Part shown: piece after piece, positions 4,347 to 4,638 of the stretch
Numbering within the stretch: position 1 is the first letter of the stretch
Layout of the letters: each line of letters begins with the position of its first letter
DNA from: a virus
Taxonomy: Duplodnaviria; Heunggongvirae; Uroviricota; Caudoviricetes
Length of the DNA stretch: 9,206 bases
Direction: 5' to 3' (one strand)
IMG/VR virus record: IMGVR_UViG_2534681940_000023
Coordinates: 1 to 9,206 of that record
The notes under the pieces: model-generated
Databases searched by the model: none
Seen by the model: the letters and a program-made list of their open reading frames with translations, nothing else
Told to the model about the DNA's origin: nothing
Position numbers and translations under genes: made by a program

Positions 4347-4511
4347 GGTGACAGCCCCTATGTTGAATTCAAAGAACTCACCACATGGGACGCCAATCAC
4401 AGAGGTGGTGAGACGTACAGGGTTGGCGTAACCGGTCAACATAGAACCCGGCGCATCTTGCGATGCCCCTGCACGCCCCACCATAATTTGGACGTAGCAA
4501 TGCTCATGATA

Positions 4512-4534
4512 CGAAAAGACCGCATGAGCGCGGT
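4512..4534 (-). terminator. Putative intrinsic terminator downstream of the proQ-like gene (minus strand)
   Basis: Minus-strand ACCGCG-CTCA-TGCGGT forms a 6-bp stem (one G-U pair) with a 4-nt loop, followed by CTTTTCG. It lies about 105 nt after the proQ-like stop. Confidence 0.35.
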
Positions 4535-4638
4535 TATGCTCTATATTGAATTCCAGGACGCCAATCCCGACACCCGCTTTATAAGGTGCCTGAACAGTGT
4601 AACGTCCCGAAATTGAGGAATCAATGTTTTGATAAAAT

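Follow-up and report, generated by a model that had tools for sequence, protein, structure and literature searches.

Between a ProQ/FinO-domain gene and the gene rha, in a viral stretch of 9,206 nucleotides (nt) that was analysed as a whole (positions 1 to 9,206 of IMG/VR record IMGVR_UViG_2534681940_000023; hereafter the window), lies a spacer that an original prediction, made from the letters alone, had read as the source of a small RNA (sRNA) of about 80 nt. That RNA was thought to pair through a GAATTC palindrome with the ribosome-binding site of rha, following the logic of FinP and traJ. What does the spacer encode, and which RNA pairs with which? The gap, put at about 290 nt, measures 292 nt from the stop codon of the ProQ-like gene to the ATG of rha. 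We propose, with a probability of about 85%, that it is an IsrK-C4 antisense immunity cassette, of the same kind as immI c4 of P1 and P7, seqA/CI/seqC of P4 and isrK-orf45-anrP of Gifsy-1.

A whole-window Rfam scan returned two adjacent matches on the minus strand of the spacer, both above their gathering scores. The isrK model (RF01394) scored 54.1 bits (gathering 50, E 1.2e-9) with the full model covered, and the C4 model (RF01695) scored 80.1 bits (gathering 45, E 6e-15) over model positions 1-87. The C4 RNA, at 4488..4401, is the strongest feature and the central element of the spacer; it lies between the two copies of a duplicated motif and had been missed by the original prediction. The parts of the cassette and the genes that flank it are listed in the direction of the minus strand.

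4639-5031, minus strand: ProQ/FinO-domain gene, 130 amino acids (aa), Pfam PF04352.
4347-4638, minus strand: IsrK-C4 spacer, between the ProQ-like gene and rha.
4596..4624, minus strand: putative isrK promoter, -35 TTGATT at 4624..4619, 17-nt spacer, -10 TACACT at 4601..4596.
4513..4589, minus strand: IsrK-type sRNA of about 77 nt, Rfam RF01394, collinear with Gifsy-1 isrK.
4556..4565, minus strand: a1 site ATTGGCGTCC (minus-strand reading), complementary to the C4 segment a' (ACGCCAA).
4538..4555, minus strand: b1 site GGAATTCAATATAGAGC, the upstream motif copy, complementary to the C4 loop b'.
4512..4534, minus strand: IsrK intrinsic terminator from the terminator scan, stem ACCGCG/CGCGGT, loop CTCA, then CTTTTC.
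4401..4488, minus strand: C4 antisense RNA of 88 nt, Rfam RF01695, between both motif copies.
4484..4482, minus strand: orf45-like ATG within C4, in frame with rha.
4446..4436, minus strand: C4 loop b' (second hairpin), UUCUAUGUUGA.
4429..4423, minus strand: C4 single-stranded segment a', ACGCCAA.
4388..4397, minus strand: a2 site ATTGGCGTCC, second copy of a1, 4 nt past C4.
4355..4372, minus strand: b2 site TTGAATTCAACATAGGGG, the downstream motif copy, running into the rha Shine-Dalgarno sequence.
3783-4346, minus strand: rha, cargo gene of the module (Phage_pRha domain; Pfam PF09669, TIGR02681).

The sRNA foreseen in the original prediction is supported by the isrK match and by its part-for-part alignment with the experimentally mapped isrK of Gifsy-1. 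The stem-loop and U-tract placed at 4512-4534 were recovered by the terminator scan as a hairpin at 4534..4519 followed by CTTTTC, and this hairpin is conserved with compensatory changes in Gifsy-1. At the other end, the two promoter hexamers stand 17 nt apart where they had been located. Position 1 of the isrK model (4589), close to which the transcript is predicted to start, falls 6 nt past the end of the -10 hexamer, and both hexamers are unchanged in ST64B and mEp460; the support for this putative promoter is positional and does not come from a consensus match. Judged on these signals, the spacer very likely yields a discrete sRNA, about 77 nt long and bounded by promoter and terminator. 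In P1 c4 the counterpart of the IsrK stretch is the a1/b1 leader, and in P4 it is seqA.

The minimum-free-energy fold of C4 (-46 kcal/mol) has a three-way shape in which a closing stem encloses two hairpins. Among 56 homologues, pairing in 15 of the 25 stem pairs is retained despite changes of both partners; the pattern used for the search itself prescribed the stem of hairpin 2, which is therefore uninformative for covariation. C4 reached the gathering score in 16 of 17 related loci, and isrK or c4-a1b1 was found directly upstream in 12 of them.

The duplicated motif, a functional element located at the rha ribosome site, leads to the pairing partners. The 15-mer CTATRTTGAATTCMA occurs exactly twice in the 9.2 kb (0.07 expected by chance; two occurrences were reached in 1 of 200 shuffles), as had been noticed, but its downstream copy lies at 4358-4372 and not at 4359-4373, and the perfect 10-nt palindrome TTGAATTCAA is present only in this copy at the ribosome site, the upstream copy having GAATTC only. 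A duplicated 10-mer, GGACGCCAAT at 4388-4397 and 4556-4565, had been overlooked; it corresponds to a2 and a1, and taken alone this repeat is not beyond chance, as 28 of 200 shuffles reached two matches. Both copies of the 15-mer have the same sense and each is complementary to the C4 loop: b' forms a run of 12 base pairs (bp) with b1 (GUUCUAUGUUGA/UCAAUAUAGAGC) and a run of 11 bp with b2 (UUCUAUGUUGA/UCAACAUAGGG). The latter (b2 side 4366..4356) covers the AGGGG ending 8 nt before the rha ATG (4346). The a' segment adds a 7-bp run, ACGCCAA/UUGGCGU, with each of a1 and a2.

Pairing was judged by the energies of loops against sites and by the comparison of own with foreign loops described below. 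The C4 loop pairs with b1 at -15.1 kcal/mol and with b2 at -12.1 kcal/mol, against -7.0 kcal/mol for the duplex of b1 with b2. The scheme first proposed, in which the sRNA copy of the motif pairs with the copy next to the rha Shine-Dalgarno sequence, relied on an AU-rich 8-bp run (GAAUUCAA/UUGAAUUC) that does exist between nt 37-44 of IsrK and the rha leader. It is nevertheless wrong, because both motif copies target the C4 loop, a third RNA, whose runs of 11-12 bp plus 7 bp exceed the 8 bp available without it. The pairing check suggested for the sRNA and the rha leader gave an ordinary whole-molecule duplex energy relative to shuffled targets (z = -1.7), with z = -0.5 for C4 and the leader and z = -3.5 for C4 and IsrK. 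Energies at the level of entire molecules were not discriminating, which is why loops and sites were compared instead.

A pattern built on the invariant stem of hairpin 2 retrieved 120 IMG/VR loci, in which 79 copies folded as C4 and gave 48 distinct loop combinations; one suspect locus was removed and 47 variants were tested. The mean energy of a b' loop with its own downstream flank was -14.0 kcal/mol, compared to -8.3 kcal/mol for foreign loops, and in 37 of the 47 loci the own loop was better than at least 95% of the foreign ones. The upstream flank and the a' segment gave a similar result. Loops and targets change together across these variants, which answers the covariation check named with the original prediction. 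Site offsets were constant (a1 about -75, b1 about -60, a2 about +7, b2 about +37); in relatives a2 sits +3 to +7 from C4 and changes together with a', and b2 usually ends in GGAGG. By contrast, a palindrome of at least 6 nt was found in b2 in only 2 of the 47 variants, and b1 pairs with b2 at a mean of -5.2 kcal/mol versus -14.0 kcal/mol for the loop with b2. One copy in a relative (L052) shares the C4 loop of the window and has AAATTCAATATAG as b1 (AAATTC), so that GAATTC is broken and complementarity to the loop is kept. The few palindromes, the weak b1:b2 duplex, this relative and the co-variation of loops with targets indicate that the GAATTC palindrome is incidental.

A four-way alignment of the window with Gifsy-1, ST64B and mEp460 showed an identical order of parts and direct compensatory swaps. 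For a', CGCCAA occurs with UUGGCG and UUUCCAC with GUGGAAA; for b', CUAUGUUGA is exchanged for CUUUGGUGA and the targets match. The identity and order of the parts, their complementarities and the joint change of loops and targets are thus direct observations.

IsrK-C4 modules were also seen in tandem: three copies 656 nt apart at L052 9709-11108, one of them sharing the window C4, and two copies each in L128 2943-3500 and L005 2131-3182. Copies within one array differ in their a' and/or b' loop segments.

C4-type systems have been known since 1990 and are curated in Rfam, and the RNA cassette itself is a further copy of this known system, with nothing new when taken alone. The closest studied relative is the Gifsy-1 module, which scores 79 bits for isrK and 69 bits for C4 between antQ and anrP, in the same order as in the window. 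As in the window, a single strand carries a promoter, a 77-nt IsrK with its terminator, a C4-type RNA, a ribosome site and a regulator gene; the isrK and C4 Rfam families are the same, and a short frame that leads to the cargo start begins at an ATG within the 5' portion of C4 (AATTATGGTGG). Experiments on Gifsy-1 detected the 77-nt IsrK, a read-through mRNA and a processed stable RNA over 'orf45' (STnc1160), and found that the middle of IsrK pairs with the orf45 region and that IsrK in trans raises anrP translation 140-fold, via orf45 translation (PMC4825925). The two modules differ in their loop and target alleles and in their position, after cII/DUF4222 in the early-right operon of the window and after antQ in Gifsy-1, and a FinO-domain gene lies directly upstream only in the window. 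The cargoes differ too: an identity of the window Rha with the ORF6N-type AnrP was considered and rejected, since no similarity is detectable and the domains are not the same.

The likeness extends to older systems. The immI operon of P1 and P7 is said to have been laid out by Citron & Schuster (1990/1992) and Heinrich (1994) as c4, a1/b1, a2/b2, icd and ant. As in the window, the antisense RNA lies within its target's own transcript, each of two short complementary segments has an upstream and a downstream copy, the downstream pair lies over the first gene's ribosome site, and the loops define the immunity type. Synthesis of the antirepressor Ant is blocked by c4 RNA, which pairs in the region of the ribosome site (PMC12197685), and the same RNA determines heteroimmunity (PMC12197685, PMC8546580); the c4 precursor is reported to be a substrate of RNase P (a work cited in PMC2190699). 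P1/P7 immI differs in having icd/ant downstream and a plasmid prophage as its setting, where the window has rha in a lambdoid prophage, and the a1/b1 segment of the window has its own terminator and would also exist as a free sRNA. The P4 seqA/CI/seqC region, reportedly described by Forti et al. (1999, 2002), shares the RNA family and the logic, and IsrK/C4 has been equated with seqA/CI and noted in lambdoid prophages (PMC3632133). Its output is premature transcription termination of the replication genes, unlike the control of translation proposed here.

On the basis of this homology, which carries the transcription, the processing of C4 and the direction of regulation, we propose the following mechanism. 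The promoter at 4624..4596 would start a minus-strand transcript at about 4589, and most transcripts would end at the terminator (4534..4512), giving a 77-nt IsrK-type sRNA that carries a1 and b1. Read-through RNA would continue into the 88-nt C4, a2, b2 and the start region of rha, Shine-Dalgarno sequence and start codon included. The b' and a' segments of C4 would then pair with b2 and a2, covering the rha ribosome site and keeping Rha, an antirepressor-type regulator, off. The a1 and b1 segments on IsrK would act as same-sense mimics of a2 and b2: in cis they would lock the read-through RNA in an inactive fold, while in trans an excess of IsrK would titrate the C4 sequence and turn translation on. 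Loop and target sequences would set the specificity, that is, the immunity type. As IsrK carries same-sense copies of the ribosome-site motifs, it would serve C4 as a decoy rather than act on rha as an antisense RNA; by homology it would activate the downstream gene, and the FinP/traJ logic suggested originally would not apply, C4 being encoded on the same strand as its target. The FinO-domain protein may bind the IsrK terminator hairpin and/or C4, assisting or tuning these pairings, as its synteny suggests.

Several points weigh against the cassette reading. The promoter hexamers, which had been called near-consensus, match the consensus at 4/6 positions each, 8/12 in total, and the promoter is not listed by our scan because this falls under the required 9/12. 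The c4-a1b1 model (RF03163) reached only 20.4 bits (gathering 46.7) over the stretch matched by isrK. Cofolding gained only 0 to -3 kcal/mol; this near-nil gain reflects loop-loop contacts, which lie outside its model, so that the energetics rest on the loops being accessible. The cargo differs from that of the studied systems (Rha versus ORF6N in Gifsy-1 and icd/ant in P1), and Rha as an antirepressor is an assumption. Finally, the orf45-like frame is fused in frame to rha, whereas in Gifsy-1 it ends at an ATGA, and details of the coupling may therefore differ.

What the FinO-domain gene does beside this cassette is a separate question. Its 130-aa product matches PF04352 with 51.7 bits (cut-off 27, E 1e-13), and its scores with the NCBIfam ProQ and FinO equivalog models lie far under their cut-offs, so that it is neither ProQ nor FinO proper. 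In the alignment to the N-terminal domain of ProQ (5nb9), K55, R59, Y71 and R81 correspond to ProQ K54, R58, Y70 and R80, among which Tyr70 and Arg80 are conserved RNA-binding residues (PMC7491321); Y71 is invariant in a 21-member alignment of the subfamily and R81 is not. A single-sequence AlphaFold2 model was poor (predicted local distance difference test score, pLDDT, 61), and the model obtained with the 21-sequence alignment was used instead (pLDDT 92.8, predicted template modelling score 0.84). Its top 26 matches in a Foldseek search of the PDB were all FinO-domain structures (RocC, Lpp1663, NMB1681, FinO), with target-normalised template modelling scores mostly of about 0.6-0.8, and the best was RocC, including RocC bound to a terminator. 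The possibility that the PF04352 match is a shadow of a long open frame across the locus was rejected, given its E-value, the confirmed fold and the existence of homologues.

The stop codon of the ProQ-like gene lies 15 nt before the isrK -35 hexamer, and no terminator stands between this stop and IsrK, so that the ProQ-like mRNA would end at the IsrK terminator. A promoter-like site, TTGAAC-16-TATCAT at 5062-5089 (minus strand), is located between the DUF4222 stop and the ProQ-like start. On another contig (L056), a different FinO-domain open reading frame (ORF) at 4906-5166 (minus strand; tblastn to the N-terminal domain of E. coli ProQ, E 6e-12) lies 4.2 kb from the contig's C4.

An exhaustive HMMER search defined a small subfamily of proteins of 124-131 aa. 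From the library clustered at 50% identity, contexts were taken for 12 representatives besides P0001, the near-identical cluster of the window; the representatives are 27-51% identical to the window protein. The following was found downstream of each gene.

P0001, window: isrK, then C4.
P0002, a P2-like prophage: isrK, C4, then a Derepression-family gene.
P0005, L136: isrK, then C4.
P0006, L137: two sRNA-Xcc1 copies, each before an ORF6N gene.
P0008, L140/L141: C4, then a Bro-N gene.
P0009, L142: sRNA-Xcc1.
P0010, L143: C4.
P0011, L145: sRNA-Xcc1, then an AntA gene.
P0012, L146: isrK/a1b1, truncated where the contig ends.
P0003, L134: no module in 339 nt.
P0014, L147: no module in 247 nt.
P0004 and P0007, L135 and L139: less than 100 nt of downstream sequence.

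The last two were left out for their short downstream sequence, and a C4-type module lies directly downstream in 9 of the 11 testable representatives, at 46-160 nt from the stop codon in 8 of the 9 cases. The sRNA-Xcc1 RNAs (RF02221; L137 2502-2587 and 3055-3143, L142 1057-1138, L145 1452-1536) take the usual position of C4, between the FinO-domain gene and an ORF6N or AntA gene, and their hairpin loop is complementary to an upstream-leader motif and to a downstream Shine-Dalgarno motif. They belong to a separate Rfam family outside the C4 clan, whereas the window RNA scores as C4; in spite of this, sRNA-Xcc1 looks like a C4-type immunity RNA. Among 76 unselected C4 copies, no gene of the subfamily was seen in the 1 kb upstream, so the C4 module works without a FinO-domain gene. 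Searches for related loci with the subfamily alignment (genome contigs) or with P0002 and P0003 (viral contigs) found nothing.

These contexts give real comparative support to the hunch in the original prediction that a ProQ-family neighbour is suggestive. They recall FinO/FinP/traJ, FopA/Inc/repZ and RocC/RocR, in which a FinO-domain protein of a mobile element is found beside an antisense RNA that occludes a ribosome site (PMC9977716, PMC7491321). Here too a FinO-domain gene stands beside a structured antisense RNA over a ribosome site, and FinO domains bind terminator hairpins with a 3' tail, such as the one IsrK has. In FinOP, in contrast, the antisense RNA comes from the opposite strand, while IsrK and C4 share the minus strand with the rha leader, and complementarity in the window is confined to short loop segments, unlike that of a cis-antisense RNA. 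The window moreover has two RNAs, a decoy and an antisense, with a bare 130-aa domain; most C4 modules, unlike the FinO systems, are without a FinO-domain gene. In Salmonella, IsrK is listed among the ProQ-associated sRNAs (PMC5391140).

From synteny, fold and the habits of the family, we consider an action of the FinO-domain protein on the IsrK and C4 RNAs possible, at clearly less than an even chance. We tentatively suggest that the subfamily of bare FinO domains of about 125-131 aa, found in phages and satellites, could be a dedicated chaperone of C4-type immunity RNAs (IsrK/C4 and sRNA-Xcc1). Such a protein may bind the IsrK terminator hairpin and/or C4 and so set the balance of decoy and antisense RNA, hence the expression of antirepressor-type cargo. 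It is encoded directly upstream of the module that it would serve. To our knowledge, C4/CI-type immunity has so far been treated as independent of proteins, RNases aside, and we know of no assigned ligands for phage-borne FinO-domain proteins. If true, FinO-FinP would have a counterpart in phages, and P1/P4-type RNA immunity a first proposed protein partner. The link between FinO domains and C4 looks new: no paper connecting FinO/ProQ proteins to C4-type modules was found in a literature search whose coverage was incomplete and which is no proof of novelty. Its persistence across deep divergence gives both fields a concrete, testable lead.

An alternative that we consider less likely is that the cassette is an inactive relic and the FinO-domain gene an unrelated 'moron' at a recombination-prone module boundary. 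The gene is indeed rare, being present in 14 of 5426 complete E. coli genomes and, by tblastn, in none of 50,697 phage records; a tblastn search of plasmids returned only host-type proQ, and a lookup of homologous proteins only a single near-identical cluster. Compared to ST64B and mEp460, the window is longer by a block of about 150 codons in which the gene lies, and the gene resembles an insertion between DUF4222 and the isrK promoter; it has a promoter-like site of its own, and the C4 copies lacking such a neighbour count in favour as well. A relic, on the other hand, would not be expected to have all its parts intact, nor a C4 that is identical in several independent prophages. Against a chance neighbour stands the adjacency in 9 of 11 representatives as divergent as those above, which spans lambdoid, P2-like and other backgrounds, cargo genes of the Rha, Derepression, ORF6N, Bro-N or AntA type, and RNAs of both the C4 and the sRNA-Xcc1 type, with gaps that are usually just 46-160 nt; the association of IsrK with ProQ in Salmonella points the same way. 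Within E. coli, it is associated with at least two different C4 alleles and three different prophage backbones, where 'it' is the FinO-domain gene.

Far less probable is that the spacer encodes the N-terminal 'Ash' domain of a longer Rha of 287 to 553 aa and that the RNA matches are incidental. The frame concerned is the following.

3783..5444, minus strand: open frame of 553 codons, in the +1 frame over DUF4222 (5092-5265) and the ProQ-like gene, then through IsrK, C4 and rha in frame.

This frame is open from 5444 to 3783, and Phage_ASH (PF10554) matches residues 282-376 of the 553-aa ORF (4601..4317) with 44.4 bits (cut-off 26). Relatives are annotated accordingly: in records of the Prokaryotic Genome Annotation Pipeline the spacer is covered by a 287-aa Rha in E. 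coli GB089 and by an 'ash family protein' in N96 and 06-00048, and ST64B sb41 and mEp460_041 are entered as proteins of 383-385 aa. In 33 of 61 distinct C4 loci, the frame equivalent in its register to C4 continues without a stop into the cargo gene, and translation of Gifsy-1 Orf45 is detectable (PMC4825925). The pattern of substitutions, however, is not that of a coding sequence. Differences in the spacer fall on the three codon positions as 20/20/15 (ST64B) and 23/28/20 (mEp460), with no third-position excess, whereas those in rha amount to 51/40/88 and 54/38/74, respectively, with the excess expected of a gene. Column entropy in 37 relatives has no 3-nt periodicity upstream of C4 (0.82, 0.80, 0.80), and likewise in the segment from a2 to b2, while the changes in the spacer preserve RNA pairs and the complementarity of loops to targets. 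In about one third of C4 loci no frame is open through the RNA, in Gifsy-1 this frame and the cargo gene are out of register, and the N-terminal portion of the long ORF comes from reading two real genes, DUF4222 and the ProQ-like gene, out of frame. By these comparisons, the spacer does not evolve as protein; a longer Rha coding sequence in relatives, which the original prediction had named as evidence against it, is how they are annotated but not how they are conserved.

The original prediction had also called the 553-codon frame an artefact, and this holds for the spacer, which is not protein-like, but less so for the lack of stops, which looks non-random. By synonymous resampling, an open +1 frame had P = 0.009 over the ProQ-like gene and P = 0.098 over DUF4222. 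The stop-free frame possibly reflects selection for ribosome transit through the terminator and C4, a reading that fits the need for orf45 translation in Gifsy-1. It would also agree with the eta/kil frames of P4, which run through the RNA region and resemble the open frame through IsrK and C4 in the window. With two real genes and both RNAs under one open frame, ribosome transit may be part of the switch.

Several annotations touch this region. In ST64B (L002), positions 2814-2993 (minus strand) hold an unannotated 59-aa DUF4222 gene (Pfam 54.5 bits) in another frame inside the sb41 ORF, and what is taken for the 'N-terminal domain' in sb41 and mEp460_041 results from reading the DUF4222 gene out of frame. 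The names PF10554, 'ash family protein' and long 'Rha family' cover an IsrK-C4 translation at 4317-4601 (minus strand) of the window, and naming of the ash or long-Rha type lies over IsrK-C4 also at L004 2503-3366, L005 2348-3400 and L130 2340-3008. Public records annotate this RNA region as protein; PF10554 appears to model the translation of IsrK-C4 RNA, which misleads annotation. In L056 no stop interrupts the frame through C4 over the 2129 nt upstream.

That the sRNA instead represses rha by direct pairing of the GAATTC core at its ribosome site, as FinP acts on traJ, is scarcely credible in view of the 8-bp run being its one support against the stronger C4 pairings, the ordinary energy with the leader, the rarity of palindromes among the variants and the AAATTC relative, and in Gifsy-1 IsrK in trans activates its cargo with no repression (PMC4825925).

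The surroundings are those of the immunity and early region of a lambdoid prophage, with the following further genes.

6361-6987, plus strand: S24/helix-turn-helix repressor.
6063-6263, minus strand: Cro, early operon.
5441-6139, minus strand: CII-like gene, early operon.
5092-5265, minus strand: DUF4222 gene, early operon.

Past rha, whose product scores 95 bits with PF09669 (cut-off 29.9) and 91 bits with TIGR02681 (cut-off 45.95), the early operon continues on the minus strand with Dam, a LexA-DNA-binding-like protein, RusA and KilA-N. The stretch 3700-5500 has close relatives in chromosomes of Shiga-toxin-producing (Stx) and other E. coli, and 274 phage records match the spacer alone, among them Stx phages, ST64B and mEp460. 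The protein between Dam and RusA (1324-1650, minus strand) has 108 aa and consists of a LexA DNA-binding domain only (Pfam 69 bits). On the plus strand, 3' of the repressor gene, a sub-threshold Rfam match to STnc100 was seen at 7599-7801 (36.3 bits, gathering 47, E 4e-5).

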